From: Candidatus Rifleibacterium sp.
GTDB lineage: Bacteria; Muiribacteriota; Ozemobacteria; Ozemobacterales; Ozemobacteraceae
Assembly (NCBI GenBank): GCA_035352635.1
Contig: DAOPYA010000006.1
Span: 3,742-67,741 of the forward strand
Length of the DNA stretch: 64,000 nt
Direction of reading: 5' to 3'
The position numbers and the translations under genes are program-made. Below, in pieces: positions 10,056 to 47,203 of this stretch. The notes beneath the pieces were generated by a model. The model worked only from the letters and a program-made list of their open reading frames with translations, did no database searches and was not told the DNA's origin. How positions within the stretch are numbered: position 1 is the first letter of the stretch; each line of letters starts with the position of its first letter.

Positions 10056-13043
10056 ATGAAAAAACCGTTCTGGTCGTGTTGTGCTATGCTCGTCTTTTTG
10101 CTTTTATTGCTCTGCTCGCCGGTCAAAGCAGCCGAGCCTGAGCTTGGGGCCAGACTGCTTTTTTACCCCATCGGCAGTGATGCCCATTTTCTCGTAAAAG
10201 CCGTTAAGAGGTCTGATACCGATAGTTCATGGTTTTATTACCGTAACCAGGCTGTTTCAATCATAGAACCCCGGCCTGGCGAATGGGTTTCTTCTTTTAT
10301 AAACACAATCTGGGAAGAAAACCAGGTAACCCATGAAATTTTCGCCTGGGGCAAGCTTTCTGGCAATTCTGAAGATTTCGCAGGGCGCTTGCAGGCCTTT
10401 ACCGGCAAAGAACCGGTTGGCATTGCTTTCAATAAAATCGAGAAAAGCCCTCTGGCTCGTCTGGTTTGCGCGGGCGCCGAAAGCGGCAAAGCGCTGAGTG
10501 GTATCCCCGCCTACAAAAAATGGGCAAAAGTCAGCGACGGCGAATTACAGCACTGGGAAGCACTTTTCCAACATCTTGCCTCGCTGAACCGGCAGCGCAA
10601 TGTTCGGGGCGAGAATCTCGATCTATACAGTGTTTTTACCGGCATCAGCGCTATCCGTGAAACCCTGCAGATCGATGTCGATCTCGCCAATGAGAATCCG
10701 GTTCTTGATCGGGCCTGTAACGCCAACCTGCGCATTATTCAGAGTGCGGTCGAAATGTACAACATGGACCACTCGACCATGATGCAAACTCTTGATCTGC
10801 AGGCTCTCGTCGAAGGTGGCTACCTGAAAAGCAAACCGACATGCCGGTCCGGTCGTGAATATTATGGCAAGAACCTGGGGTCTGATGGCATGATTCGCTG
10901 CCCGGCTCACGGCGATATCAATAACCCGCGCCCTGATGATGGTCTGGTTGTCGATAATACAGCGAGAGTCAAAGTAGCTGGGCTGGAAGGCCCTAAAGCG
11001 CCATCGCACCCCTGGCGCAAAATGATCAAAAACCCCAATCTGGTTTTGCCCGAAGTCTATCGTCTGATACCGTCTGACTGCGCGTTTATTCATTTTCCTT
11101 CTTACAGCTCGTTTCGCAAGGCTTTTGACTTTTTTGCCGACTGGGCATCGGCTCTGGGCACCATGGCTGGCGGCGATTCGGGCAGTTCAAATTTCGGTCT
11201 TGAGAAGCGCATCAAAGACCAGTTGTTGCTCAAAACCGACATGCTGACCAGACTATTTGCAGACCTGGCGCTCAGTGATATTGTTTTTGTCTGTGAAGAC
11301 CCGTTTATCTTTGAAGGCAGCGCAGTGGCGGTAGTGCTTAAAATAACCAACGAAACAATGTTGCGCGAGAAGCTTGCAATGACCGCCAACGAATTTCGCA
11401 GCGAAAACCCTGCGATCAGCGAGAATACGCTGATGATGGGTGGCAGAAAGGTGCAGGCCTTCACCTCGCCTGATTTCCGCTATCGTTCTTATCGCCTGCT
11501 TGCCGATGGGCACCAGATCATCTCCAATTCGCCCCTGTTAATGGAAAAATTCATTTCGGTGCTTGACGGCAAGACCCCGGCGCTTACAGAGTTTCTTGAT
11601 CTGCATTATTTTTATGAACATATCGAGAAGAATTTTAAGCAACCGGGTCGCATTTTCAGCTTTCTTTCTGATGCCTTTATCAGAAAAATCATCGGGCCTG
11701 CCTGCAAAATCGCCACCAGACGCCGACTCGAATGCATTCGCCAGTCACTGCTGCAGACCCATGAATTGATGGTGAATGATGGCAAACTCGACGAGACCCT
11801 TACCTGCCCCGAGGGTGGCGTCTACGAGGTTGTAGATGGCGAAATCAGTTGCACGGTGCATCGGGTTTTTGGGCGAATGACGCCGGTAAGCGAAAGACTT
11901 CCGGTTGAAGCGACCCCTGAAGAAGCCAGCAGCTATGCAACTTTCGTTGCCCAATACAATCAGTATTTTTCGCAATTTTTTGACCCGATCGGTTTTGTAT
12001 TTTCAACTGAACCCGAATTCACCGGGCGACTTCTAATTATGCCGCTGGTTGAAAACGGCATTTACAGCGAATTGCAAAAAAATGTCCGCCATGAGCCGAT
12101 GAATGCCGGCCCGCAACCGCAGAACGGCATTCTCAAGGTCGGTGTGAATCTTCAAGCCGCTAATCTGCCGGTGCCCGGTTACTGGCTCAGTAACATCGCT
12201 TATCAGAAACGTCTTGAACTCGTCGGCCGCTGGTTCACTGGTTGTGTCTGGGCACATCTTGCTGACCACCCCCTGTTGTTCCACTGGGATTCAAACCTGC
12301 TGGCGCGTGGTATTCTCGGTGCTTTCAGCGGCGGGCGAACTGGTATGATGGGGTTATCACCGGCAATACTCAGCTTTTTTTCGCCGGTGCTTTTCGCGAT
12401 CGAGCTGACCGATGAGTCGCATTTTGACTCTATAATTGACTGGGTTCGCAACGAAATCGCGGGCAGCATCAACAATTCTGGCTTCATGGGGCCGGCATTC
12501 AAGCTCGATCAGCTCGAAGAGAATGGCGTCAAAATGTATGTGTTCTCGTTTGAACTTTTTGCGATCAGAAAAACCTATTACCTGACGCTTCGTGATGGTT
12601 TTTTTCTGGTGGCCAGCAAAAAAGAACTGCTCTTCAATCTTGAAGAAGCGCCTGCTTATGAAAAAAATGCCTTTTCAGGCAATTTCAACCTCGTCTTTTA
12701 CCCGGCGAAAATAAGACTGATGCGCCCTGATCTTCTCGAAGTGCGTGCCCGTTCGCAACGCGAAACCTGCCTCGAAAACCTTAAAAACCTGCATTTCGTC
12801 TCGACCTTTCACCCAGACCAGACCGAAAAATTTTATCAGATTGTTTACGCTGCGCAACCGGTCTGCCCGGCCGGCGGCACTTATTCAAGCGTCATGCCGG
12901 TTTCCTGCTCTCAACATGGCACAATTTCGGGAGGCGTGCTCAAGCCGGTTTCTGACTTTTTCAAAGGGGTTGGCGCCATCTCGATTCAGAGTTTCATCGA
13001 CTCCGAAGGCTTTCAGAGTGAGGTTAGATTTTTCCCCGAGTAA
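10056..13043 (+). CDS. Large secreted protein (signal peptide) containing an internal pseudopilin (GspG-like) domain
   Basis: Cleavable signal peptide MKKPFWSCCAMLVFLLLLLCSPVKAAEP. Internal segment DRACNANLRIIQSAVEMYNMDH..LQALVEGGYLKSKP..C..HG matches the post-helix region of T2SS GspG/type IV pilins and the C-terminal domain of 37740-40205. Confidence 0.7.
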   Translation: MKKPFWSCCAMLVFLLLLLCSPVKAAEPELGARLLFYPIGSDAHFLVKAVKRSDTDSSWFYYRNQAVSIIEPRPGEWVSSFINTIWEENQVTHEIFAWGKLSGNSEDFAGRLQAFTGKEPVGIAFNKIEKSPLARLVCAGAESGKALSGIPAYKKWAKVSDGELQHWEALFQHLASLNRQRNVRGENLDLYSVFTGISAIRETLQIDVDLANENPVLDRACNANLRIIQSAVEMYNMDHSTMMQTLDLQALVEGGYLKSKPTCRSGREYYGKNLGSDGMIRCPAHGDINNPRPDDGLVVDNTARVKVAGLEGPKAPSHPWRKMIKNPNLVLPEVYRLIPSDCAFIHFPSYSSFRKAFDFFADWASALGTMAGGDSGSSNFGLEKRIKDQLLLKTDMLTRLFADLALSDIVFVCEDPFIFEGSAVAVVLKITNETMLREKLAMTANEFRSENPAISENTLMMGGRKVQAFTSPDFRYRSYRLLADGHQIISNSPLLMEKFISVLDGKTPALTEFLDLHYFYEHIEKNFKQPGRIFSFLSDAFIRKIIGPACKIATRRRLECIRQSLLQTHELMVNDGKLDETLTCPEGGVYEVVDGEISCTVHRVFGRMTPVSERLPVEATPEEASSYATFVAQYNQYFSQFFDPIGFVFSTEPEFTGRLLIMPLVENGIYSELQKNVRHEPMNAGPQPQNGILKVGVNLQAANLPVPGYWLSNIAYQKRLELVGRWFTGCVWAHLADHPLLFHWDSNLLARGILGAFSGGRTGMMGLSPAILSFFSPVLFAIELTDESHFDSIIDWVRNEIAGSINNSGFMGPAFKLDQLEENGVKMYVFSFELFAIRKTYYLTLRDGFFLVASKKELLFNLEEAPAYEKNAFSGNFNLVFYPAKIRLMRPDLLEVRARSQRETCLENLKNLHFVSTFHPDQTEKFYQIVYAAQPVCPAGGTYSSVMPVSCSQHGTISGGVLKPVSDFFKGVGAISIQSFIDSEGFQSEVRFFPE

Positions 13044-14777: not shown

Positions 14778-15713
14778 ATGATAACCAATGTAATAAAAAC
14801 TGGTGTTTTAGTATTCGGTTTCGTTGCTGCTTCCGGGGTTATGGGTGTATCGGCACAGGAAGGAACACTTGACGTAAGTGCCCGCGAAAAACTGCTCCAG
14901 GAAACGCTGCAACTGCTCGACAGAGTTGAAAATGAATCGCCAAAGGCCCACGCTGATCTGGTTAAGATCCGTGAACGCCTGTTGGCTATTCATAAGAACC
15001 CTGTTGTAGAAGGCATTCAGAGTGCTGATGTCAACCCCGAACTTGTCTACTACCGTCAGCGCAACACCCCGGCTCGTCAGGCCAAAAAAGCCCGGCGCAC
15101 CAACTTCCAGGAATCTGTAAAGGGTCTGCGTGATGATGCTCTGCGTCAGCGCCTGCACGATGCGATTGCCAACCAGAAGGTTTATGATTATGGCGATGCC
15201 AGGCGTCTGGTCATGCTTAAAATCGATAATCACGAAGGTTACATCGAATGTATTTACACCGGCAGAGTCATTTCGGCTGATACAATGCCGAAAACTTCCG
15301 AAATGAACATCGAGCACACCTGGCCCCAGTCAAAGGGCGCGACTGGTCCCGCCAAGTCAGATATGCATCATCTGTTCCCGACTGACCCGGTTGCTAACTC
15401 GACCCGCAGCAGTCTGCCCTTCGGCGAAGTATCGAACCCGAAATGGCAGAATGGTGGCAGCGAATGTGACCAGAAGCGCTTCGAAATCCGCAAAAAATAC
15501 CGTGGCAACTCAGCACGTGCTATGTTTTACTTTGCCGTCAGATATAACAAGAACATCTCAGCCCCCGAAGAAGACATTTTGCGGCAATGGCATAAAGAAG
15601 ACCCGGTCGATGCCACCGAAAAATCGCGCAACGAAATAGTTGAATCAGTTCAGGGTAATCGCAATCCTTTTATTGATAACCCTGAATATGTCGATCAGAT
15701 TACTGATTTCTAG
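14778..15713 (+). CDS. Secreted endonuclease I family nuclease (EndA/NucM-like)
   Basis: Signal peptide. EHTWPQSKG catalytic region typical of the Endonuclease_1 family. NPFIDNP near the C-terminus. Confidence 0.75.
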   Translation: MITNVIKTGVLVFGFVAASGVMGVSAQEGTLDVSAREKLLQETLQLLDRVENESPKAHADLVKIRERLLAIHKNPVVEGIQSADVNPELVYYRQRNTPARQAKKARRTNFQESVKGLRDDALRQRLHDAIANQKVYDYGDARRLVMLKIDNHEGYIECIYTGRVISADTMPKTSEMNIEHTWPQSKGATGPAKSDMHHLFPTDPVANSTRSSLPFGEVSNPKWQNGGSECDQKRFEIRKKYRGNSARAMFYFAVRYNKNISAPEEDILRQWHKEDPVDATEKSRNEIVESVQGNRNPFIDNPEYVDQITDF

Positions 15714-25574: not shown

Positions 25575-26531
25575 ATGGCAAATGCAAAGAACCTCTGCCT
25601 CGGAATCGATCTCGGAGGCACCAAAGTAGCGGTTGGCCTTTGCAAAGGCGAAGAGATTCTCAAAAAGGCGATTTTTCCGACTCAGGCTTCTGCGGGTTTT
25701 GATGGGGTTATTTCAGTGATACTCGGTGCCGTCGAGAAGGTAATGGAAGGGCATACCCTCAAAGAGGTGTCGGGCGCCGGTATCGGTTCAGCTGGCCAGA
25801 TCGACGGTGCCAGCGGCGAAGTTATCTATTCGCCGAATCTCGGCTGGCGAAACGCACCCCTCGGCAACGCGGTGAGCAAGGCTCTTGGTTTGCCGGTCAA
25901 GGTGCTGAACGATGTGCGTGCCGCCACAGTCGCCGAACAGAAATTTGGCAACGGCAAAGGCCTTGAAAATTTTGGTAATATTTTTGTCGGCACCGGCGTC
26001 GGTTCGGGCTGGGTTATTAATGGCCAGCTGATGAACGGTGTCACTAATTCAGCGGGTGAAATCGGCCACATCTGCATGGACCCGGAAGGCCCACTCTGTG
26101 GCTGCGGTAATCGGGGCTGTCTTGAAGCCTATTGTTCAGGCACAGGCATGGAAAATTACGTGAAAGCCGAATTGAAAAAGGGGCGCAAGAGCCTGCTCAG
26201 CGAGCTTGCTGAGCACAAACTCGAAAATGTGCGCGGCCCGCTGATCGGCAAGGCAGCAGAGCAGGGTGATGAACTGGCTCTTGAAGCAATTCATCGGGTT
26301 GGTAAATATCTAGGGTTGGCTCTGGCGAACGTTCATACTCTGCTGAACCCAGAAGTAGTGCTTCTTGGCGGCGGCATGATGGCTCTTAAAAAGTTTTTCC
26401 TGCCGCAGCTTGATAACACTCTGCGTCAGCACATTCTGCCGGTAGCCGCTAATCATAATCGGCCCCTCATCAAAGAGGCCCGTTTTGAGAATGACGCTGT
26501 TCTGCTCGGTGGGGCGGCAGTTTTTGCATGA
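25575..26531 (+). CDS. ROK family sugar kinase (glucokinase-like)
   Basis: LGIDLGGTKV ATPase motif. CGCGNRGC zinc motif. AAGGAG RBS 7 nt upstream of ATG 25575. Confidence 0.8.
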   Translation: MANAKNLCLGIDLGGTKVAVGLCKGEEILKKAIFPTQASAGFDGVISVILGAVEKVMEGHTLKEVSGAGIGSAGQIDGASGEVIYSPNLGWRNAPLGNAVSKALGLPVKVLNDVRAATVAEQKFGNGKGLENFGNIFVGTGVGSGWVINGQLMNGVTNSAGEIGHICMDPEGPLCGCGNRGCLEAYCSGTGMENYVKAELKKGRKSLLSELAEHKLENVRGPLIGKAAEQGDELALEAIHRVGKYLGLALANVHTLLNPEVVLLGGGMMALKKFFLPQLDNTLRQHILPVAANHNRPLIKEARFENDAVLLGGAAVFA

Positions 26532-27484
26532 AGCCTCTTTACCCGGCAACTTTCAAGGCTGCTGATGTAGAACGCCAGCATTGGGCAGAAATACCGGCGA
26601 ACATTCAGTTTTATCGGCATGTTCGCAACGTCTGTAATGGTTTTCCAAGTGTTGTGCTCGCCTGGTCGGCCAGGCCAGGCCTCGAAAGCCTTGCGGCGGG
26701 CATTGCTGAAGGCCTCATGAATAGCGGAATAAATGTTTTCATGCCGCCGCAGGCCGCACCGATTTGTGCTTTATCACAGGCGATCGGCGCACGTAATCTT
26801 CCGATTGCCCTTTATCTCGACGCTGACGAACATGTTGCCAATCTGACGCTTGCCGCGCTTTCGAGCCACGGCGGGCCATTTGACCAGCAGGATATTCTTA
26901 CGGCGCCGTTTGGGCGCAGCGGAAAGTCTGGAGTCGCCGGTGAAACCGACATTGAAAGAGCTTATGTCAATAATCTTGCCGGGCTGGCTGACCAGTTTAT
27001 CGAAAACGGCACCGGTTTTTCCGAGCTGGAAATCCCTTTTAGCGCCCTTTTAGATCGTCTGCATGAAAACCCGGCACTGAAAATACTTTTTCAGCAAGAC
27101 CCCGAGGGGCCGAAAGCCATCGTAGGTCATGATGGCCAGACGTTAACCATAATCGAAAAAGATGGCCGTCAGATGCAGACAACCGAAATAGCCAGCTTTA
27201 TCACCAGTTACCTTGTCGAAGACAGAATGGCTGCCGGCACACTTCTCGGGCCGACCGGTCAGGTGCACGATTTTGCCAGATCTTTCGCCGGTCTCGAAAC
27301 CATTGAAATCGATGATTCGCTGACTGATTTTCACCATCGCGCCAGTTTCATCGACCTGCTGATTGGGTGGTGGCACAATGGTTTGATTGCTCACCAGGGC
27401 GGCAGTTGCTTTGGCGATGCCATTTTAACCGCCGTCTACTATCTCGAATCCCGCCGCCGCCACCACCAAAAAAAAAATATGTAG
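26528..27484 (+). CDS. Hypothetical protein, weak phosphohexomutase-like signature (SSHGGP)
   Basis: 318 aa. Translationally coupled to the ROK kinase (overlap at 26528-26531). Confidence 0.45.
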   Translation: MKPLYPATFKAADVERQHWAEIPANIQFYRHVRNVCNGFPSVVLAWSARPGLESLAAGIAEGLMNSGINVFMPPQAAPICALSQAIGARNLPIALYLDADEHVANLTLAALSSHGGPFDQQDILTAPFGRSGKSGVAGETDIERAYVNNLAGLADQFIENGTGFSELEIPFSALLDRLHENPALKILFQQDPEGPKAIVGHDGQTLTIIEKDGRQMQTTEIASFITSYLVEDRMAAGTLLGPTGQVHDFARSFAGLETIEIDDSLTDFHHRASFIDLLIGWWHNGLIAHQGGSCFGDAILTAVYYLESRRRHHQKKNM

Positions 27485-27663
27485 GGACCGGTTTGTAGGG
27501 ACCGGTTTGTAGGGACCGGTTTAAAACCGGTCCCTACGGGTATGTAATTGCATCCGGGTATGTAATCGTGCGCGGGTATGTAATTGCATCCGGGTATGTA
27601 ATCGTGCGCGGGTATGTAATTGCATTCGGGTATGTAATTGTGTGCGGGTACGCAATCACACCC
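27481..27663. repeat. Minisatellite: 3 x 14-bp (GTAGGGACCGGTTT), a 13-bp-stem perfect palindrome, then 7 x 18-bp direct repeats (GGGTATGTAATYGYRYSC)
   Basis: Read directly. Sits between the stop of 26528-27484 and the stop of the convergent rlmD-like gene. Confidence 0.85.
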
Positions 27664-29005
27664 GTTCGAAGACACACACCAGTTCAACATGATGCGTACG
27701 TGGGTATAGATCGAACCCGGCGACCTCAGTCAGGCGGTAACCGCTGTTGACGATGGCGCTCGCATCTTTTTCGCAGGCATCGAGGTCGCAGAAAACGCAG
27801 ACAACCTTTTTGGGCAGCAATTTGCCGAGCAGACGTGCGATGCCGGGGGTGCCGGTGCGCGGTGGGTCGATCAGTAGAACATCAGGTTCAGGGGTGCATT
27901 TTGCCAGTTCTTTGAGCGCATCACCTTCAATGAGACTTATGCGTTCAGAGAAACCGCTGCGTATAACGTTGCGTTGCCCGGTTCTAACTGCACCAGGGTG
28001 TGATTCTATTGCCTCAACCCGGGCGCCCTTGGCAGCCAGAGCCAGAGTGAAATTGCCGGCACCGGCAAACCCTTCAACAATGCGAGTTTCGGCGGAAGGT
28101 TTGCAGAATTCAACAACCTTGCGCACCAGCACTGGGTTCTGAAAGATGTTTCCCTGCACGAAGAACGAAGGTTCGGCATCATAAGGCCCACCATCTATTT
28201 CGGGGGCGACCAGCCCGGTAACATTGACCGGCCCGACGACTTCTTTAATTTTGCCATCGAATGTAGAGATCGACATGCCCTTGAGATTAAGACTGCGCAT
28301 GACTTTCATCAGATCTTCATAGCAATGCCGTGAAGTTTGCCCCTTCATGAGCACGGCGTGCCCGGTGACCCGGTCTGAATTGTGTGCTGAAGAAGACATC
28401 AATGTCAGGCTGTCGAGCATGATCGGAACCTGATTGAGAATTTTGCGGGCGGCGACCAGGCGGCGGTTGAGTGGGGCGGTAACCAGGGCGCAGGCAGTAA
28501 CCGGCACCACGTTTCCGGGCACTGGTGTCTGCCAGTTATCGGAAGCGAGAAAACCTGATTCGCGTTCTTCAAAGCTTCGGCTCTGATGCAGCCTGACGCG
28601 TGGCAGATACCTGATCAGCTCACGGGAAGGGTGAAAGCTGTGAACGAAGGCTTCTCTGCCGCCTGGTATGCGGGCGAGACTGCGTTCAATCATAGCCTGT
28701 TTTTCTTTTTTGCGGCCTTTTTCTGAGAGTTCGAGAAGATCGCAGCCGCCGCAAGGGCCGTGAAAAAAGCAGTCGGGCTTGACGCGTTCGGGTGAAGGCT
28801 CAAAAAGGGCTGCAGATACGACTTTTAAAGCGCTGTCAAGCTGGACTTCGACCTTGTCGCCAGGCAGAAAACCGGCAAGCCTGACCCGGTTATGTTCAAG
28901 GGTAATAAAGGCCTGACCGTTGCCGGTCAGACCTTCAACAACTGCAATCACGCGTCTGAGTTTGTTTTCGTTCACTCTTGTTACTTCTTGATGACTTTTG
29001 GGCAC
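27656..29005 (-). CDS. 23S rRNA (uracil-5)-methyltransferase RlmD-like (TRAM + Fe-S + class I SAM MTase)
   Basis: N-terminal TRAM-like region. CGGCDLLEL Fe-S cysteines. C-terminal MTase with FCDLDACE region. Confidence 0.75.
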   Translation of the reverse strand: MPKSHQEVTRVNENKLRRVIAVVEGLTGNGQAFITLEHNRVRLAGFLPGDKVEVQLDSALKVVSAALFEPSPERVKPDCFFHGPCGGCDLLELSEKGRKKEKQAMIERSLARIPGGREAFVHSFHPSRELIRYLPRVRLHQSRSFEERESGFLASDNWQTPVPGNVVPVTACALVTAPLNRRLVAARKILNQVPIMLDSLTLMSSSAHNSDRVTGHAVLMKGQTSRHCYEDLMKVMRSLNLKGMSISTFDGKIKEVVGPVNVTGLVAPEIDGGPYDAEPSFFVQGNIFQNPVLVRKVVEFCKPSAETRIVEGFAGAGNFTLALAAKGARVEAIESHPGAVRTGQRNVIRSGFSERISLIEGDALKELAKCTPEPDVLLIDPPRTGTPGIARLLGKLLPKKVVCVFCDLDACEKDASAIVNSGYRLTEVAGFDLYPRTHHVELVCVFERV

Positions 29006-30189
29006 TGCAAGCGTTCATAACTGGGCATGCTGCCGAGTAGCGGGCGTGCATAGTTGAGAAAGTCAGTGGTAACGCCGTTGCCGGCTTCGTTGATGAAAGT
29101 GCGTGGCATTGGCTTCGTTTCGCGGGCGACACTGGCGAGCGGGGTCAGGAAATAATCGACCGAATAATCGCCAGTTCTGCGAATGGCAACTGAGCCATCG
29201 ACGTTGTTCCAGACGGCAAACTGGGCGGCTTTTTCGCCGACTTCACGGGCTTCGGCCTGGTCAACTTCTGAAACGATGCCGAGAAAGCTTCTCTGCAGGT
29301 AACCAAAAGTATCAGAGCGAACCCGCTTGATTTTGAGGCGGTCCTTGATGACTTTGCCGAGGGCATCGCCGAGGGCGCCGGTACCCGAAAGCTGCACGTT
29401 GCCGTGCGCATCTTTTTCAGAATCGCCGATCAGCGAAGAGATAATCGGCTGGCCATCGGGGCCGACAATGCCTTCAGACACGGCAATGACACAGCGGCCG
29501 AAGCGCCGGTAAGCATCATCGACATCTTTCAGAAAAGTTTCAGTTTCGAAGGGTCTTTCTGGCATATAAATGAGGTGTGGGCCGTCGTCTTCATATTTCT
29601 GGGCGAAAGCCGAGGCTGCAGTCAAAAAACCAGCGTTGCGGCCCATAACGACGCCAATGTAGACGCCGGGCAGTGCGCGGTTATCAAGGTTAACGCCGGC
29701 GAAGGCTGAAGCAACGAACTTGGCCGCCGAACCATAGCCAGGGCAGTGGTCGGTGACCCGAAGATCGTTATCAATGGTTTTTGGGATATGAATGCAGCGC
29801 AGTTCATAGCCAGCGGCCGCGGCATTATCATTCACGATGCGCACCGCATCAGCCGAATCGTTACCGCCGTTGTAGAAGAAATATCTGACATTGTGCTTCA
29901 TACAGACTTTAAAAATCTTTTCACAATAATCAGCATCTGGTTTATCACGGGTCGAAAGCAGTGCCGAACTGGGTGTACAGGCAACTCTTTCGAGATTGTG
30001 GGTAGTTGCCTGGGTCAGATCGATGAAATCTTCTTCGATAATGCCTCTGACGCCATGTAGAGCGCCATAAACACGGTCAACTTCAGGAAACTTTCTTGAT
30101 TCAAGAACCGCACCTACCAGACTCTGGTTGATAACAGCAGTCGGGCCGCCGCCCTGAGCGATAAGAACGTTACCTACGAGTTTTGCCAT
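28981..30189 (-). CDS. 6-phosphofructokinase (PFK-A family, possibly PPi-dependent)
   Basis: LIAQGGGPTAVIN..GG.DS..PKTIDNDL motifs. Confidence 0.8.
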   Translation of the reverse strand: MAKLVGNVLIAQGGGPTAVINQSLVGAVLESRKFPEVDRVYGALHGVRGIIEEDFIDLTQATTHNLERVACTPSSALLSTRDKPDADYCEKIFKVCMKHNVRYFFYNGGNDSADAVRIVNDNAAAAGYELRCIHIPKTIDNDLRVTDHCPGYGSAAKFVASAFAGVNLDNRALPGVYIGVVMGRNAGFLTAASAFAQKYEDDGPHLIYMPERPFETETFLKDVDDAYRRFGRCVIAVSEGIVGPDGQPIISSLIGDSEKDAHGNVQLSGTGALGDALGKVIKDRLKIKRVRSDTFGYLQRSFLGIVSEVDQAEAREVGEKAAQFAVWNNVDGSVAIRRTGDYSVDYFLTPLASVARETKPMPRTFINEAGNGVTTDFLNYARPLLGSMPSYERLQCPKVIKK

Positions 30190-30285
30190 GTTATAGTGTC
30201 TCCTCTGTTTGTAATGAATTGCACCGCGCCATTATGCCCCGAAAGGCCGCAGCAGGTCAAGAAGAAGTTTTTTTCCGAAGGGGCA

Positions 30286-30314
30286 TTGACAAAGAATCTG
30301 AGGCACCATAGAAT
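30286..30314 (+). promoter_or_regulatory. Near-consensus sigma70 promoter TTGACA-17-TAGAAT
   Basis: TTGACA at 30286-30291, TAGAAT at 30309-30314. ATG codons at 30313 and 30322. The predicted TSS coincides with ATG 30322. Confidence 0.55.
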
Positions 30315-32910
30315 GCACGGCATGCCCACCCCCCGCAAAAAGAAAATCGCGCCGGCTACGGCGGTAAATATTGCCGCCGGCGACCGCCAGGTGCTCGTCG
30401 ATGCCATCGCTGAAGCGCAAGGCGCCGAAGTGTTGAGTGCGGCAACCTGCCGGACCGATAAAACCTGGGATAACATCCGGATTCTTGCCCGGGGCAACGA
30501 AGACTCAGCGCCGGCAATCGTGCGCAGTCTCCGGCCCGGTGATGTTATGCTCCATAACCATCCATCAGGCGAACTGATGCCTTCTGATGCCGATCTTTCG
30601 GTGGCTTCATTGTGTGGCAAGTCAGGCATCGGTTTCGTTATTCACAATAATGCATGCAATGAATTCTATGTTGTCGTCGAGCCTTTTATTGAAAAACAGG
30701 TACAACAACTTGATCCCCGCGAAATGACTGCCTTCATCACAAAAGGCGGTGCCATTGCCCGCCGCCTCGACAACTTCGAAGAGCGTGCCGGACAGAAAAA
30801 CCTCATGGAAAAAATCATTGAGGCAATGAACAAACCCTGCCACGCCATGCTCGAGGGTGAGACCGGCATCGGCAAAAGCATGGCGTATCTGATTCCGGCG
30901 GTGCACTACGCGATCCGAAACCGTTGCCGGGTCGGCATCTCAACCAATACCATCAACTTGCAGCATCAGCTGGTCAATAAAGACCTGCCTTTTCTTGCAT
31001 CGATTCTTGATTTTCCCTTTAAATACTGCCTGGTCAAAGGCCGGCGCAATTACATCTGCCTGCGCCGTATTCGCGAAGCCCTCGCCGCCACCGATGGTGA
31101 GTTCCTGCTCGAACACGATGAATTCGATCAGTTTAATCGCCTGGTTTCGTGGGCCGAAAATACCGCCGATGGTTCGTTGAGCGATCTGAACTGGGTGCCG
31201 GTTGAATCGCTCTGGGAAAAAATCTGCTGCGACAAAGACAGTTGCCCGGGCATAAAATGCAGCGAATACAACGAATGTTTTTTTTATACTTCGCGGCGTT
31301 TTGCTTCTGAAGCCGATATTCTTGTGGTCAACCACCACCTGCTTTTTGCTGACCTTGCCCTGCGTGCCGACACCTCTGAATACAGTCAGACAGCGGTTAT
31401 ACCGGCCTGCAAGGTTGTGATTCTCGATGAAGCTCATAATCTCGAAGAAACGGCGACCAAGCATTTCGGGTTTCGCACTACTGCAGTTGGCATTCAGCGA
31501 GTTCTTAACAAGATTTATCAGAAACGTGGCCGGCGTGAGCAGGGTAGTCTCGCGACTCTTTATTCGCTGATTTCGTTCGGTCGCGGCGATTTTTCGGTCG
31601 AGAACCGGGCGGCCCTCCTCCAGGATCTTTCCGAAGATATGATTCCGTCGCGCCTCGAAATCGGTGATCTCAGCCGAAGTCTTTTTGATGCGGTGACTGC
31701 CTTTATTACTGACCCGGCCAGCGCCCAACCCGGTGAATACCGTCTGCGTATCGGGCCGCGCGAAGAGCAACGCGGTGAGTTTTCTTCTCTGGTGCATTTT
31801 GCCTTTAAGCTGCGTGACGAATGCAAGCGACTTGCTGGTCGAATGCGCAAGATGGCCCGCAAGATAAGCAATCTGCTTGGCGATGAAGAATCAGACGAAA
31901 GTGAATGTTTTGAACTGCCCGTAACCGAGTTAAATTCTTACGCGGCCCGCCTCGACGAAACTGCAGGTGGCGTCAACATTCTTTTCGATGCGAGTGCCAC
32001 TGATCGTGAAATTTTTGTGCACTTCTTCACGGCTGCCTTCAGAAAAAACGCTGTCTACCCGGCCTTTAATTCACTGCCTATCGAAGTCGCGAAGCCGATG
32101 CTGGAGTATTGTTTTAAAAAAATACCCTGCACGGTTCTGGTTTCCGGAACTATGACCACCGCCCATGATTTTTCGTTTATTCGCGGTCGTCTTGGCCTTG
32201 ACAACGCTGAACTGACGCCGAAACCACTTGAAGAACGCTTCTCTTCGCCCTTTAATTACCAGGTGCAGGCGCGGCTTTTCATTCCGACCGATTTGCCTGA
32301 CCCGGCCAGCCCGGTTTTTGCCGAGAAAGTCAGTGACCCGTTATTCGAAATTATTCTCGCTTCGCGTGGCGGCGCCTTGATTTTGTGCACCTCATACGGC
32401 CATTTGAACCATTTTTACAACAGTCTGGCGCGGCGGCTTGCCGCCGAGGGCCTTGAATGTTACAAGCAGGGCGAACTTGAACGGCATCATCTTCTTGAAT
32501 TGTTCAAAGAAGACGGCAACGCCGTGCTGATTGCAACCGACAGTTTCTGGGAAGGGGTCGATATACCCGGTTCAGCGTTGCGCAACCTTATCATAACCCG
32601 CTTGCCGTTTGCGACGCCCAATGACCCGGTGCTTGAGGCACGCAACGAAAAGATCAAGGGCGCAGGGGGCAATGCCTTTAAAGAATATCAACTGCCGATG
32701 GCCGCTATCAAGCTCAAACAGGGTTTTGGCCGGCTGATCCGAAAAAAAGACGACCGCGGCACCGTCTGGATACTTGATAACCGTATTGTCAGCAAAAGTT
32801 ACGGCAGTTATTTTCTTGATTCACTGCCAGAACTGCCGGTCATGCGTGGCAAATTTCAGGCACTGGCGGGCATGGCCCGCAAATTTTTCGGCAATGATTC
32901 TTGCGAATAG
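30313..32910 (+). CDS. Fusion protein: N-terminal JAMM/MPN (RadC-like) domain + DinG/XPD-family Fe-S superfamily-2 helicase
   Basis: HNHPSGELMPSDAD matches the JAMM motif H-x-H-x7-S-x2-D. Walker A GETGIGKS. DEAH box VILDEAHN. Fe-S cysteine cluster (CLRRI..CCDKDSCPGIKCSEYNEC). C-terminal helicase_C_2 region. The track start at 30196 is GTG and sits 7 bp from the divergent pfk start, so it was rejected. Confidence 0.75.
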   Translation: MHGMPTPRKKKIAPATAVNIAAGDRQVLVDAIAEAQGAEVLSAATCRTDKTWDNIRILARGNEDSAPAIVRSLRPGDVMLHNHPSGELMPSDADLSVASLCGKSGIGFVIHNNACNEFYVVVEPFIEKQVQQLDPREMTAFITKGGAIARRLDNFEERAGQKNLMEKIIEAMNKPCHAMLEGETGIGKSMAYLIPAVHYAIRNRCRVGISTNTINLQHQLVNKDLPFLASILDFPFKYCLVKGRRNYICLRRIREALAATDGEFLLEHDEFDQFNRLVSWAENTADGSLSDLNWVPVESLWEKICCDKDSCPGIKCSEYNECFFYTSRRFASEADILVVNHHLLFADLALRADTSEYSQTAVIPACKVVILDEAHNLEETATKHFGFRTTAVGIQRVLNKIYQKRGRREQGSLATLYSLISFGRGDFSVENRAALLQDLSEDMIPSRLEIGDLSRSLFDAVTAFITDPASAQPGEYRLRIGPREEQRGEFSSLVHFAFKLRDECKRLAGRMRKMARKISNLLGDEESDESECFELPVTELNSYAARLDETAGGVNILFDASATDREIFVHFFTAAFRKNAVYPAFNSLPIEVAKPMLEYCFKKIPCTVLVSGTMTTAHDFSFIRGRLGLDNAELTPKPLEERFSSPFNYQVQARLFIPTDLPDPASPVFAEKVSDPLFEIILASRGGALILCTSYGHLNHFYNSLARRLAAEGLECYKQGELERHHLLELFKEDGNAVLIATDSFWEGVDIPGSALRNLIITRLPFATPNDPVLEARNEKIKGAGGNAFKEYQLPMAAIKLKQGFGRLIRKKDDRGTVWILDNRIVSKSYGSYFLDSLPELPVMRGKFQALAGMARKFFGNDSCE

Positions 32911-32923
32911 CGCTCGGCGCGAA

Positions 32924-34201
32924 TCAGACAGAACGGCTCAGCTGCTTGAAGAATTCAACCAGTTCAGGCTCGTCTGAGTCTTCGGCAATCTGCAAAAGGG
33001 TCAGCCCGGCCTTATTTTTCATGTTAAGGTCGGCCCCGGCCGAAATCAGACTTCTCACCGCTTCGAATGAACCGTCTTCAACGGCATGCATCAGAGCGGT
33101 ATTGCCCGAGTCATCACGGCGATCAAGCAGAATGCCATATTCGAGCAGCAGGGCGAGAACGTCGAAGTGTTCTTCAAGCACCGCTCTGATCAACGGCGTT
33201 GCGCCGAAGACACCTTTTATTTCGGGGTCAGCACCGGCATCAAGCAGTGCCTTTACGATTTTGATATTGCCAAGGCTGACGGCAAGCAGCAGTGGTGATG
33301 AGCCTTGTACGGCTTCGCAGCGGTGCATGTCTGAATCTTTTTCGATCAGCATTTCGACTGCGGCGAGATTGTCGTTCTGAATTGCCTTGAAGAGAAGGGT
33401 CATGCCTGAATCATCGTTTTCGTTAATCAGCTGCGGATACTGCTTGATCAGCGTTGACAGCTCAGGTAGCCGGTTGTTCTGCAGCAGGCTGACGGCCTTG
33501 CTGAAATGGCCCGAAACCGTGATGGTGCCCGGAATCTTATTTATCGCATCGACAAGTTCTACCAGGCGCAGCCGGTCGAGATTGTCGGGCAGCCCTTCGA
33601 GATAGCCAGCAAGATCTGGCAGGCTGTTCAGGAGAATTGCTGCAACCGTAAGGCTGGCTGACTCGCGAAAATTGGCGAGCAGGCATTCAAGCCCCTGCAC
33701 ATAAAGCACCGGAATATCATTGCTTTTGCCGAAACCGGTCAGAAAACGACCAAAGCCAAAATTGAGGCGGTTGCGCTTCAGGCGCTCAAAATAGATACAG
33801 GCATTCTGAGCCTTCTGTACCCTGGCAACCACGTCCTGTTCGTGAAAAGACAATGTCCAGGCCAGGCGTGACAGTTTGAGGGTCAGGCAGGCGTTTTCCT
33901 GGTTGCATGCCAGTTCGGCGGCCACTGAGGTCATGTAAGCTGTTTGAATGCGATCGAGAGCGAACGGCTGCTCTTCGCTGCTGACAAAAAAATTAAGGGC
34001 TTCAGCGCCGCGTTCGAGCCTGACCAGACAGAGAAAGTGGTAATAACGCTGCCAGCCAAAGAGTGCCGGGTCTACGGGCGGGTTGGCGAGCAGACGGGTG
34101 CGCATTTCCTGGCAGAGATCAAGGGCGCTGGCGTAACTTTCCTGGTTGAGCTGCGTGGCAATCTGTTTAAGATAGGTTTCAAAGATAGTTGGATTTGTCA
34201 T
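32924..34201 (-). CDS. Ankyrin-repeat protein with N-terminal TPR-like helical region
   Basis: At least 4 ankyrin repeats in the C-terminal third (TPLIRAV.., NTALMHAV..G..E..LI.AGADLN). Confidence 0.7.
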   Translation of the reverse strand: MTNPTIFETYLKQIATQLNQESYASALDLCQEMRTRLLANPPVDPALFGWQRYYHFLCLVRLERGAEALNFFVSSEEQPFALDRIQTAYMTSVAAELACNQENACLTLKLSRLAWTLSFHEQDVVARVQKAQNACIYFERLKRNRLNFGFGRFLTGFGKSNDIPVLYVQGLECLLANFRESASLTVAAILLNSLPDLAGYLEGLPDNLDRLRLVELVDAINKIPGTITVSGHFSKAVSLLQNNRLPELSTLIKQYPQLINENDDSGMTLLFKAIQNDNLAAVEMLIEKDSDMHRCEAVQGSSPLLLAVSLGNIKIVKALLDAGADPEIKGVFGATPLIRAVLEEHFDVLALLLEYGILLDRRDDSGNTALMHAVEDGSFEAVRSLISAGADLNMKNKAGLTLLQIAEDSDEPELVEFFKQLSRSV

Positions 34202-45778: not shown

Positions 45779-47203
45779 ATGGGGGCAAACATGAGATCGT
45801 TTAAAACAAGGCTTGGCATGGCCTTGCCTTTCACGATAATAGCGATGGTTGTGGTAGTTGGCTTTATCATGACCATGAGTCGCATGAATCAGGGTGTGAA
45901 AAACCAGATTTTTCACACCAATAATCACCAGTTGTCGTTTTTAATGGCCTATTCAGCCCTTTCACGGGTTTGTGCCAAAATACACTCTTTTTCGTGGGCG
46001 AATCGGCCGTTTGTTACTGACCCTCTGGTTGAAAACAAAGTGGCTCTGCAGGGTGGCGAGTATGATCTGCTCGTCGAAAACAGCAAAAACCGCGACTTTC
46101 AGGCTGATGTGTATGTGCGCACTCATCTGGCAGGCATTTCCAGAATGTATTTCTGGCGTGTAAGATTTAACGATGACCTGCTCGATGTGTCTAATCAGAT
46201 TTTTGTCGAAGCCTTTTTGAATGCTGATCCAAAAGATTTTCCGGTAGCTGGCAAGGCTAACCCCTTTGCCAGCAGAGTCGAAAGCATGCTTGCCCAGCGA
46301 GTCGCCAACCAGAAAAAATCCGACCAGCTGGCTCGTGAAATCATCAAGCTTAAAAAGCCCAATGATATTATCAAAGAGATTAATGGCCGGCCGATCGCGC
46401 CTGGCGACCCGGGCTTTCCACCCCCGCCTGAAGACATTGAAATTGCAAAAAAAGAACCGGTCGATGTGCCGCAGATGCCGCCACTCCCCGGCTCCGAAAA
46501 GCCATCCGCGCCTGGCCCCAGGGTCAACGTTCCGCCTTCTGCCACCGACAGCATGGTCGGCATCAATATGAATGCAAAGATGGCAAGTGTCGTCAGCTCT
46601 TCAAAATCGGCCTACGACTACACCGACCAGGGCTGGAAAAAAATTGAAGAGAAGGGAGTTGGGGGGATGTCAGAAGCGACTGATCTTCACACCCAGGCTG
46701 CCGAAGCCCGAGAAAAGGCCTTTGATGATATGAGCGATTTGATAACCGATGCCAGAACAGGCATCAATGACGCACCCAGCTCCGGTGCCGCAAAGGCCAT
46801 CGAAGAAATGGTTTCCCAGACGATCGTCGCCGGCGTGCAAAACCTCGGAAACGCCCTCAACCGAGGCATGGATCACCTTGACAACAACGCCGGCAGTGAT
46901 TATCTCAACTCATTGCCAACTGCAGAGTCGGTTGCCAAGCTTACCACCGACTGGGAAACCGCCCTGGTTAACGTAACCGCAGATGTTACCCGAATGACTG
47001 AATTGGCCAACGAAATCGGCCCATTTGCCAAGGCACCCGAAGTCGAGGCGGCTCTTGCAGCTGCCCTCGAGCAGGCCAGAGCTAATGTTGAACAGTTGAC
47101 CAAACTGGTTGAAGATGCAAAAAAGAGGCTCGAAGAACTCATCAAAAAAGAAGAAGAAGAAGCCGAGCGCCTTCGACAGCAGGAAAACGAGAGCCAGCAA
47201 TGA
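45779..47203 (+). CDS. Pilus/pseudopilus-associated protein with degenerate N-terminal pilin-like helix (PilX/GspK-like), Pro-rich linker and C-terminal coiled coil
   Basis: N-terminal LGMALPFTIIAMVVVVGFIMTMS. PPPPEDIE/PPLPGSEKPSAPGP linker. Stop overlaps the next gene's start (ATGA). Confidence 0.5.
   Translation: MGANMRSFKTRLGMALPFTIIAMVVVVGFIMTMSRMNQGVKNQIFHTNNHQLSFLMAYSALSRVCAKIHSFSWANRPFVTDPLVENKVALQGGEYDLLVENSKNRDFQADVYVRTHLAGISRMYFWRVRFNDDLLDVSNQIFVEAFLNADPKDFPVAGKANPFASRVESMLAQRVANQKKSDQLAREIIKLKKPNDIIKEINGRPIAPGDPGFPPPPEDIEIAKKEPVDVPQMPPLPGSEKPSAPGPRVNVPPSATDSMVGINMNAKMASVVSSSKSAYDYTDQGWKKIEEKGVGGMSEATDLHTQAAEAREKAFDDMSDLITDARTGINDAPSSGAAKAIEEMVSQTIVAGVQNLGNALNRGMDHLDNNAGSDYLNSLPTAESVAKLTTDWETALVNVTADVTRMTELANEIGPFAKAPEVEAALAAALEQARANVEQLTKLVEDAKKRLEELIKKEEEEAERLRQQENESQQ

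Follow-up and report, generated by a model that had tools for sequence, protein, structure and literature searches.

What does a RadC-type JAB domain do when it is carried by a DNA helicase, and how is such a gene expressed? RadC is, to our knowledge, among the most widespread bacterial proteins without a biochemical function, and its fusion to a DinG helicase provides the strongest contextual clue to the role of RadC-type JAB domains. The gene described here is located in a 64-kb stretch of a Riflebacteria-like metagenome-assembled genome, which is referred to below in its entirety as the window. It occupies a single open frame at positions 30196-32910 of the + strand, identified from the list of open reading frames and the sequence itself, with in-frame ATG codons at 30313 and 30322; the public gene call uses the former (30313-32910, 865 aa), and the latter would yield a product of 862 aa. 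An upstream GTG start at 30196 was rejected, since it lies 7 nt from the start of the divergent PFK gene and the sequence up to 30312 aligns with that of relatives only via non-triplet indels. The PFK gene (28981-30189, - strand) is divergent on the 5' side and an ankyrin gene (32924-34201, - strand) is convergent on the 3' side; therefore, the gene is monocistronic by layout, as a preliminary description of the locus had stated. The product combines a RadC-type JAB domain and a DinG/YoaA-type Fe-S helicase in one polypeptide, and 70 full-length relatives share this fused frame; together with the window protein they constitute the 71 full-length sequences compared below. Residues are numbered from the ATG at 30313, and all features of this gene are on the + strand.

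The JAB/JAMM domain covers residues 20-125 approximately (30370-30687) and contains the core motif HNHPSGELMPSDAD (30553-30594, residues 81-94), which supplies H81, H83, S91, and D94. The catalytic glutamate upstream of this core, missing from the preliminary description, is E39 within GAEV (30427-30429), and the spacing E-x(n)-HxH-x7-S-x2-D that defines the JAMM/MPN+ metallopeptidase superfamily is confirmed, together with the corresponding fold. The best sequence match of the domain in the PDB is RadC (2qlc, E=2.6e-4). An AlphaFold2 model of the domain (pLDDT 86) likewise has RadC 2qlc as its top Foldseek match (1.5e-5), followed mainly by JAMM/MPN folds; among the matches listed, nearly all are RadC, CSN5, AF2198, PfJAMM1, Rpn11, or other MPN-domain proteins, including the non-catalytic Rpn8, Mov34, and EMC8. 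The five residues E39, H81, H83, S91, and D94 are invariant in 71/71 sequences, so that the Zn-JAMM domain is, judged by its residues, catalytically complete. Throughout the 71 sequences, the domain is acidic, with a median pI of 4.9 and net charges between -12 and -1, and retains a single invariant basic residue. Measured against the window protein, the median identity reaches 47% over the JAB domain and 36% over the helicase, which indicates a stronger constraint on the former. The Pfam RadC model aligns only to a 21-residue motif of the window protein and scores just under its cut-off of 22.1 bits (18.0 bits for the whole protein, 21.4 bits for the JAB domain alone); therefore, the domain is unflagged in public annotation.

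The DinG/YoaA-type SF2 helicase core extends over residues 150-850 approximately (30760-32862) and is supported by NCBIfam profiles and by the match to E. coli DinG (PDB 6fwr, 9.5e-46). It contains the Walker A motif GETGIGKS (30856-30879, residues 182-189; K188 is invariant in 71/71 sequences), an Fe-S cluster domain (31057-31278), the DEAH box or Walker B motif (31426-31437, residues 372-375; its D, E, and H are invariant, and all 71 sequences have DE(A/G)H), and motor domain 2, Helicase_C_2 (32347-32832, residues 679-840; Pfam E=1.9e-45), and R807 is also invariant throughout. The putative cluster ligands C249, C311, C316, and C322 align with C120, C194, C199, and C205 of E. coli DinG; three of them are found in every sequence, and C311 in 64 of the 71. 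The JAMM/RadC-like domain and the DinG-family Fe-S helicase of the preliminary description are thus corroborated by motifs, profiles, fold, and alignment with DinG. From the domain scan that it had proposed, Helicase_C_2, DEAD_2, and also DEAD were recovered by Pfam in the helicase part; the RadC model was missed by the window protein, unlike in 17 of 17 other family members tested, all of which it matches.

The same description had not recognised the fusion as one already described, which it is. Iyer et al. (2011; PMC3239186) report, from several phyla, DinG/RAD3 helicases to which JAB domains of the RadC type are fused, and a 2025 review (PMC11981726) names the subgroup "RadC-like DinG", presents an AlphaFold3 model and a representative from Desulfuromonas soudanensis, places its predicted architecture nearest to YoaA, and states that the subgroup has not yet been the subject of research. 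The window gene is a member of this already known family from a Riflebacteria-like lineage, one that is unnamed in the available sections of both papers (PMC3239186; PMC11981726). It has in common with the published proteins the N-terminal RadC-type JAB domain with an E/HxH/D centre (here complete with S), the YoaA-like core with Walker A, DEAH, and Helicase_C_2, and the four-cysteine Fe-S domain, all in one polypeptide of ~850 aa. Its N-terminal domain is 40-47% identical to those of Desulfuromonadales RadC-like DinG proteins, and it differs from other family members by a lineage-specific, Lys-rich N-terminal tail (PRKKK). Full-length colinear relatives occur in Desulfuromonadales, Spirochaetota, and Bacillota. 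The fusion is carried by 80/80 of the best genome loci examined, in more than 12 phyla, and nearly all carriers found are metagenome-assembled genomes, for example of Geobacter and Desulfuromusa. Our literature search for an experimental activity of RadC or RadC-like DinG found none. The sole functional inference published (PMC3239186) is that of a nuclease, and it speaks against a peptidase.

The window protein is distinct from each of the better known proteins to which its parts are related. YoaA, the DinG paralogue of E. coli that functions together with HolC (chi), provides the best NCBIfam match of the helicase core and shares its Fe-S domain and DEAH box, but the score falls short of the equivalog cut-off (NF053712, 538 vs. 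680 bits) and the window protein has the additional JAB domain. The matches to E. coli-type DinG (NF008729, 393 vs. 598 bits) and Bacillus-type ExoDinG (NF005981, 484 vs. 789 bits; TIGR01407, 343 vs. 548 bits) are also below the cut-offs. The ExoDinG proteins of Bacillus and Staphylococcus likewise have a hydrolase domain N-terminal to a DinG core that is closely related, in the same position, and PDB 8zef, an ExoDinG with an N-terminal DnaQ-type 3'-5' exonuclease, matches the window protein with 2e-35. The two differ in the fold of the N-terminal domain, which is JAB in the window protein and RNase H-like in ExoDinG, and in the Fe-S cysteines, which are intact in the former and lost in ExoDinG of Bacillales. 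Canonical RadC, a protein of about 220 aa composed of HhH and JAB domains, is the best sequence and fold match of the N-terminal domain (PDB 2qlc) and shares the motif HNHPSG...PS..D. In contrast to it, the window protein has no HhH domain and joins its JAB domain to a helicase, and its scores are far below the canonical RadC equivalog cut-offs (NF000642, 17 vs. 180 bits; TIGR00608, 13 vs. 134 bits). A canonical RadC gene adjoins the fusion gene in 6 loci; therefore, both coexist as separate genes.

Transcription of the gene probably relies on a near-consensus promoter of the sigma-70 type, which consists of a -35 hexamer TTGACA (30286-30291), a 17-nt spacer, and a -10 hexamer TAGAAT (30309-30314) that overlaps the first in-frame ATG (30313-30315). 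This is the best promoter-like site of the region (11 of 12 positions). The pattern TTGACA-N17-TANAAT occurs only once on both strands of the 64 kb (0.02 matches expected), and 2 of 100 shuffled sequences contained a match. We aligned the site in four independent Riflebacteria-like sequences, namely the window and the loci L001, L002, and L008. The -35 hexamer is the same in all of them, and the -10 box of the relatives is TAAAAT or TACAAT, i.e., it varies only at the third position, which is weakly constrained in -10 hexamers. Apart from this position, neither the hexamers nor their spacing of 17 nt changes, and the second ATG always follows the -10 box after a gap of 7 nt, though the N-terminal domains are as little as 57% identical to that of the window protein and the residues encoded between the two ATG codons vary (HG, HR, PC). 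Conservation elsewhere in the 123-nt intergenic region is confined to the two hexamers of the PFK promoter, which lies back to back with this one and diverges from it (TTGACC-18-CATAAT, 30231-30260, - strand); both are kept in the four-sequence alignment.

The A of the second ATG (30322-30324) is located 8 nt past the -10 box; therefore, transcription is predicted to start at 30321-30322. This geometry and its conservation support a leaderless mRNA that would have its 5' end at the ATG at 30322 or 1 nt ahead of it and encode the 862-aa product, with the -10 box positioned for transcription to start at this codon and no conserved Shine-Dalgarno site. A leaderless transcript had been predicted from the geometry before, and the conserved arrangement TTGACA-17-TAnAAT-7 nt-ATG now backs it; the accompanying claim that there is no Shine-Dalgarno sequence needs correction, since GAGG is present at 30300-30303, 9 nt before the ATG at 30313, yet this element is not conserved among relatives. 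It leaves room for an unlikely arrangement in which the promoter is real but the mRNA has a leader: translation would start at 30313, the ATG chosen by public gene callers, an unrecognised promoter would be located further upstream, and GAGG would serve as the ribosome-binding site, in line with the Shine-Dalgarno sites used on other genes (e.g., AGGAGA before the PFK gene). GAGG is found in the window and L002, but it is replaced by GACG in L001 and by AATC in L008; the invariant hexamers, spacing, and gap to the second ATG, and the intergenic region with its lack of further conserved blocks besides the PFK promoter hexamers, also argue against a leader. Two other candidate leaderless genes of the window were set aside: a promoter-like site at 45813 falls within an ORF that plausibly encodes a signal peptide and probably arose by chance, and the Endonuclease I gene at 14778, although TATAAT precedes its ATG by 8 nt, is without a good -35 element.

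As for the role of the JAB domain, our tentative preference is for a peptidase, directed at protein that is bound or crosslinked to DNA, rather than for a nuclease. The E. coli helicases DinG and YoaA load on single-stranded DNA and translocate in the 5'-3' direction. By analogy with these family members, the window helicase would load on single-stranded DNA, move 5'-3', and thereby carry the JAB hydrolase, to which it is tethered, up to any obstacle in its way; there the JAB domain could cut an amide or peptide bond and thus trim a protein bound or covalently crosslinked to the tracked strand. In favour of a peptidase over a nuclease are the oxyanion-stabilising Ser91, invariant in 71/71 sequences, and the uniform acidity of the JAB domain with its one invariant basic residue, although the acidic pI carries little weight, since many metal-dependent nucleases share this property. 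More tentatively still, the JAB domain may be regarded as a helicase-delivered protease that clears crosslinked or tightly bound protein from single-stranded DNA, and the fusion as a single-chain bacterial counterpart of FANCJ and SPRTN. In that system, as described in PMC12279946 (citing Yaneva 2023), FANCJ runs into a crosslinked protein and unfolds the adduct, which is then cut by the SPRTN metalloprotease. The likeness is limited to how the system works, i.e., to the pairing of a DinG/XPD-family Fe-S helicase with a Zn metalloprotease: FANCJ is a weak PDB match of the window helicase, SPRTN has a zincin/SprT fold in contrast to the JAB fold, and the two are separate eukaryotic proteins, whereas the window fusion is one chain and its function is predicted. 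We know of no DNA-protein-crosslink phenotype or substrate in the carrier organisms.

The main competing explanation, which we consider possible but rather doubtful, is a helicase-nuclease in which the JAB domain, as a Zn-dependent nuclease, would degrade or nick the unwound strand, much as ExoDinG would with its DnaQ-type exonuclease or EndoDinG with its endonuclease. It follows the proposal of Iyer et al., who predicted a nuclease role because the exonuclease domain of closely related DinG helicases has been displaced by a non-homologous one (PMC3239186), and the window protein agrees with this displacement: positions 245-927 of the Bacillus DinG profile PRK08074 align to residues 142-857, so that the exonuclease block of the profile (1-244) is replaced by JAB, which thus occupies the exact N-terminal slot of the 3'-5' exonuclease. 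According to the 2025 review, N-terminal nuclease domains are recurrent in DinG subgroups (ExoDinG, pExoDinG, and EndoDinG; PMC11981726), and the fusions of RadC to HhH, primase, and ArdC ssDNA-binding modules and the nucleic-acid-related ancestry inferred for its deaminase-like fold (PMC3239186) point the same way. The domain itself is more difficult to reconcile with a nuclease: among the matches listed, the structure searches give RadC and proteins of the JAMM/MPN peptidase family and no nuclease, the uniformly acidic domain has but one invariant basic residue, and the full peptidase-type constellation including Ser91 is kept. Moreover, we know of no JAB-fold protein that has been shown to cleave phosphodiester bonds, which counts against a nuclease.

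A role other than that of lesion effector seems improbable. The JAB domain would then be a regulatory, autoprocessing, or protein-docking module, or have as its substrate the amide of a small molecule or nucleotide; for instance, it could bind or trim a factor of the replisome or SSB type, in place of the contact that YoaA makes with HolC. MPN domains often act as scaffolds, and the fold matches include Rpn8, Mov34, and EMC8, as noted above. HolC, the partner of YoaA, is absent from organisms with RadC-like DinG, according to the 2025 review (PMC11981726), and Iyer et al. inferred a nucleotide-binding ancestry for the fold (PMC3239186). Yet a scaffold needs no five invariant catalytic residues, which are nonetheless kept in 71/71 sequences across phyla, and there is no conserved neighbour hinting at a dedicated partner in the 77 loci compared.

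The genomic setting is of the housekeeping kind, and our best explanation of the gene product is a stand-alone, chromosomally inherited genome-maintenance enzyme. The gene is surrounded by genes for PFK, an RNA methyltransferase, the ankyrin protein, a prepilin-type protein, a CFA-synthase-like enzyme, and BaxI, and Riflebacteria relatives have retained the synteny with PFK. Clustering of up to 4 genes on each side of the 77 loci, from many phyla, revealed no conserved partner gene; the only large cluster (24/77 loci) comprises paralogous histidine kinases, and the others reflect lineage-specific synteny. The GC content is flat (0.49-0.54 throughout), so that a horizontally acquired island was rejected, and neither a CRISPR array nor CRISPR-like repeats were found in the 64-kb window. 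The link to phage defence hinted at in the preliminary description therefore received no support from the neighbourhood. A component of anti-phage or mobile-element defence, for example a type IV CRISPR effector akin to CasDinG or a conflict system that contains JAB, is very improbable: RadC-type JAB domains are common in polyvalent proteins of phages and plasmids (PMC5512222; PMC3239186) and the helicase core is hit by PADLOC typeIV_DinG models (7.5e-129 at best), but this match reflects generic DinG similarity, the curated Csf4 model TIGR03117 gives 122 bits vs. a cut-off of 400, no cas, ubiquitin-like, E1, or E2 genes are found nearby, and in the 77 loci from many phyla the gene stands singly among housekeeping-type neighbours.

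The window copy itself adds little to the family beyond a new, Riflebacteria-like lineage and a clean conserved promoter that apparently gives a leaderless mRNA. With its invariant centre, conserved and acidic JAB domain, lack of a partner, and housekeeping context, the family as a whole constitutes a well-defined target for biochemistry. If the protease reading is true, it would provide the first activity assigned to any RadC-type JAB domain; if the domain turns out to be a nuclease, it would be the first built on the JAB fold. Biochemistry could thus settle the choice between nuclease and peptidase, and may uncover a way in which bacteria free their DNA of protein obstacles.

The studied gene lies within a single long open frame (30196-32910, + strand) that offers two in-frame ATGs, 30313 and 30322, and its product has 865 aa when counted from the first of them. 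The public record, in which the window corresponds to contig CAZOMG010000020.1 of the metagenome-assembled genome GCA_964580875.1, likewise starts the gene at 30313. The helicase part matches the Pfam families DEAD, DEAD_2 and, in its C-terminal part, Helicase_C_2 (1.9e-45), and contains a Walker A motif (GETGIGKS, residues 182-189) and a DEAH box (residues 372-375). In the alignment with E. coli DinG (PDB 6fwr, E=9.5e-46), the Fe-S ligands C120, C194, C199, and C205 correspond to C249, C311, C316, and C322, which confirms the assignment to DinG-family Fe-S helicases made in the preliminary description. Among NCBIfam models, the helicase core scores best with YoaA (538 bits), followed by Bacillus DinG (484) and E. 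coli DinG (393), all of them below the curated equivalog cut-offs.

The Pfam entry of the public record includes no JAB domain, and the Pfam RadC model aligns with the window protein over a 21-residue motif only, just under its cut-off of 22.1 bits (18.0 bits for the whole protein, 21.4 for the domain alone). The JAMM core at residues 81-94 reads HNHPSGELMPSDAD, and with the catalytic glutamate E39, within GAEV, the E-x(n)-HxH-x7-S-x2-D constellation is complete. The first 156 aa retrieve the RadC structure 2qlc as the sole significant sequence match in PDB (E=2.6e-4). For an AlphaFold2 model of residues 1-141 (mean pLDDT 86, input alignment of 17 sequences), 2qlc is also the top Foldseek match in PDB (1.5e-5), followed almost exclusively by other JAMM/MPN proteins (CSN5, AF2198, PfJAMM1, Rpn11, BubCD), with no nuclease fold among the matches. 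Moreover, Pfam RadC matches 17 out of 17 members of the N-domain alignment (best E-value 4.6e-9). Together, the 2qlc sequence match, the modelled fold and the family-wide Pfam matches establish the N-terminal region as a JAB domain, as had been proposed from its JAMM motif.

The same fusion had been taken for an undescribed one; in fact, RadC-type JAB domains fused to DinG/RAD3 helicases are reported by Iyer et al. 2011 (PMC3239186), and a 2025 review (PMC11981726) names the subgroup "RadC-like DinG", a name that we did not find elsewhere in the literature searched. The window gene is thus a further family member from a Riflebacteria-like lineage. When the N-domain alone served as query, a word-indexed protein search returned 16 relatives, all contig-end fragments, several of which extend into the Walker A motif of the helicase. 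Among 1.84 billion representative proteins, searched exhaustively with a profile, 402 clusters matched at E<=1e-30, and the top 150 of these mostly have the full fusion length (800-920 aa). Scanning GTDB, with each species represented by one genome, yielded at least 593 confirmed matches, some of which may be canonical RadC genes. The best 80 of these loci represent Riflebacteria, Thermodesulfobacteriota, Dadabacteria, Spirochaetota, Hydrogenedentota, Nitrospirota, Nitrospinota, KSB1, Bacillota, Acidimicrobiia, Desulfuromonadales (Geobacter, Pelobacter, Desulfuromusa) and others, and encode JAB and helicase as a single reading frame (about 820-900 aa), except for contigs ending within the gene and a few interrupted frames. 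The closest relatives among the matches listed, one of them labelled Candidatus Riflebacteria, have N-domain identity of 85-87%. The public contig NODE_712 (ERZ724085; L001 about 10435-10478) terminates in Illumina adapter sequence, AGATCGGAAGAGCGTCGTGTAGGGAAAGAGTGTAGATCTCGGTGG, which creates an artificial C-terminus of its protein P0001, so that the fusion looks like a 155-aa stand-alone JAB protein.

The predicted promoter of the helicase gene comprises a -35 hexamer TTGACA (30286-30291, + strand) and, after a 17-nt spacer, a -10 hexamer TAGAAT (30309-30314), in agreement with the near-consensus promoter noted earlier. It matches the consensus at 11 of 12 positions, and TTGACA-N17-TANAAT occurs nowhere else on either strand of the 64 kb (0.02 expected; present in 2 of 100 shuffles). 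Transcription had been predicted to start at or near the ATG codons at 30313 and 30322. The former overlaps the -10 box and would thus be absent from any transcript of this promoter; the A of the latter is 8 nt past the -10 box, within the usual range of transcription starts at sigma-70 promoters. We aligned the intergenic region with those of three independent relatives, L001 (of the L001/L003/L004 group), L002, and L008, whose N-domains are 85, 87, and 57% identical to that of the window, respectively. Both hexamers, their spacing and a GC-ATG 7 nt downstream are kept in all four sequences; in the -10 box, only the third base, a weakly constrained position, changes (TAGAAT, TAAAAT, TACAAT). 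The residues encoded between the first and the second ATG vary (HG, HR, PC), as does the remainder of the spacer. Apart from these elements, intergenic conservation is limited to the two hexamers of a promoter-like site for the divergent phosphofructokinase (PFK) gene (TTGACC-18-CATAAT, 30231-30260, - strand), located back-to-back with the helicase promoter. GAGG at 30300-30303 could serve as a Shine-Dalgarno sequence for ATG 30313; in relatives it becomes GACG or AATC. In the more distant low-GC relatives L005-L007, the promoter arrangement is not clearly seen. The conserved geometry favours a predicted leaderless mRNA starting at 30322. An 11-nt palindrome, ATGC-NNN-GCAT (30313-30323), covers the two possible start codons; all four sequences keep its arms and differ in its centre (ACG, ACC, CGT), and it could be an operator or a mere by-product of two ATGs. 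Elsewhere in the window, an Endonuclease I family gene (14778-15713, Pfam 2.4e-32) is preceded by a TATAAT whose end lies 8 nt from the ATG, lacks a Shine-Dalgarno motif, and is possibly a second leaderless gene in this genome.

Conservation was analyzed in the window protein and 70 full-length relatives. Invariant in all 71 sequences are E39, H81, H83, S85, S91, and D94 of the JAB domain, as well as the Walker A lysine, the D, E, and H of the DEAH box, the motif VI arginine and three of the four Fe-S cysteines, the fourth being present in 64. Since relatives resemble the window protein more closely in the JAB domain than in the helicase (median identity 47% vs. 36%), the former appears to be a constrained catalytic module rather than a decaying appendage, and these alignments demonstrate purifying selection on a predicted catalytically complete JAMM domain fused to an Fe-S DinG/YoaA helicase. 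All 71 JAB domains are acidic (median pI 4.9, net charge -12 to -1), with R60 as the sole invariant basic residue. In contrast to this acidic domain, a Lys-rich tail precedes it in Riflebacteria-lineage members (RKKK, residues 8-11, 30334-30345) and has no counterpart in other phyla.

We tentatively propose that the helicase, translocating 5'-3' on single-stranded DNA in an ATP-driven manner as inferred from E. coli DinG and YoaA, would deliver the Zn hydrolase tethered to it to an obstacle met on the strand it follows; there, the JAB domain would hydrolyse an amide bond in a protein bound or crosslinked to that strand. This peptidase reading is suggested because all JAMM enzymes of known chemistry are, to our knowledge, (iso)peptidases, and because the oxyanion-stabilising serine is invariant and the domain uniformly acidic. 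It also draws on the absence of nucleases from structure searches, both here and in the 2025 review (PMC11981726), and on the precedent of FANCJ, a DinG-family helicase described in PMC12279946 as translocating into crosslinked protein and unfolding it for cleavage by the SPRTN metalloprotease. The main rival is the published proposal of Iyer et al. (PMC3239186), who argue from the close kinship of JAB-fused helicases with versions having a 3'-5' exonuclease at that position that the domain "might function as a nuclease". Positions 245-927 of the NCBIfam profile of Bacillus-type DinG align with residues 142-857 of the window protein, therefore the JAB domain precisely substitutes for the exonuclease block, and N-terminal nuclease domains recur among DinG proteins according to PMC11981726; we regard a nuclease as somewhat less likely than a peptidase. 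A regulatory or docking role is unlikely.

By its layout, the helicase gene stands alone, as the preliminary description had stated: the upstream PFK gene is divergent and the downstream ankyrin-repeat gene convergent. Between the stop codons of the helicase and ankyrin-repeat genes there are only 13 nt (32910-32924), too few for a conventional intergenic terminator; the final 45 nt of the helicase coding sequence contain a terminator-like hairpin (32866-32890), GCGGGC-ATG-GCCCGC with AAATTTTT after it. Two adjoining tandem-repeat arrays (27480-27522, a 14-nt unit in 3.1 copies at 100% identity; 27537-27664, an 18-nt unit in 6-7 copies with a 36-nt super-unit at 96%) sit between the convergent genes 26528-27484 (+) and 27656-29005 (-). 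Other window neighbours encode a tRNA-U5-type RNA methyltransferase, a prepilin-type protein, a cyclopropane-fatty-acid-synthase-like methyltransferase and a BaxI-family protein. Clustering of up to four genes per side in 77 loci revealed no partner gene conserved across phyla; the largest cluster consists of paralogous histidine kinases and the remaining ones reflect within-lineage synteny. PADLOC matches to type IV DinG represent generic helicase similarity; the curated Csf4 model, with a cut-off of 400 bits, gives 122. With these neighbours, flat GC content (0.49-0.54) and no CRISPR-like array within the 64-kb window, the setting is of a housekeeping type rather than a defence island, and the earlier hint at phage defence now appears highly improbable. 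In six deltaproteobacterial loci, a canonical HhH-JAB RadC gene is located 1-2 genes downstream of the fusion (for example, L078 11130-11813), therefore fused and free RadC forms occur together in this lineage, with a possible functional link. The literature searched contained no experimental work on RadC activity. In this housekeeping setting, RadC-like DinG would work with no partner gene of its own, and the family as a whole is a good experimental target.
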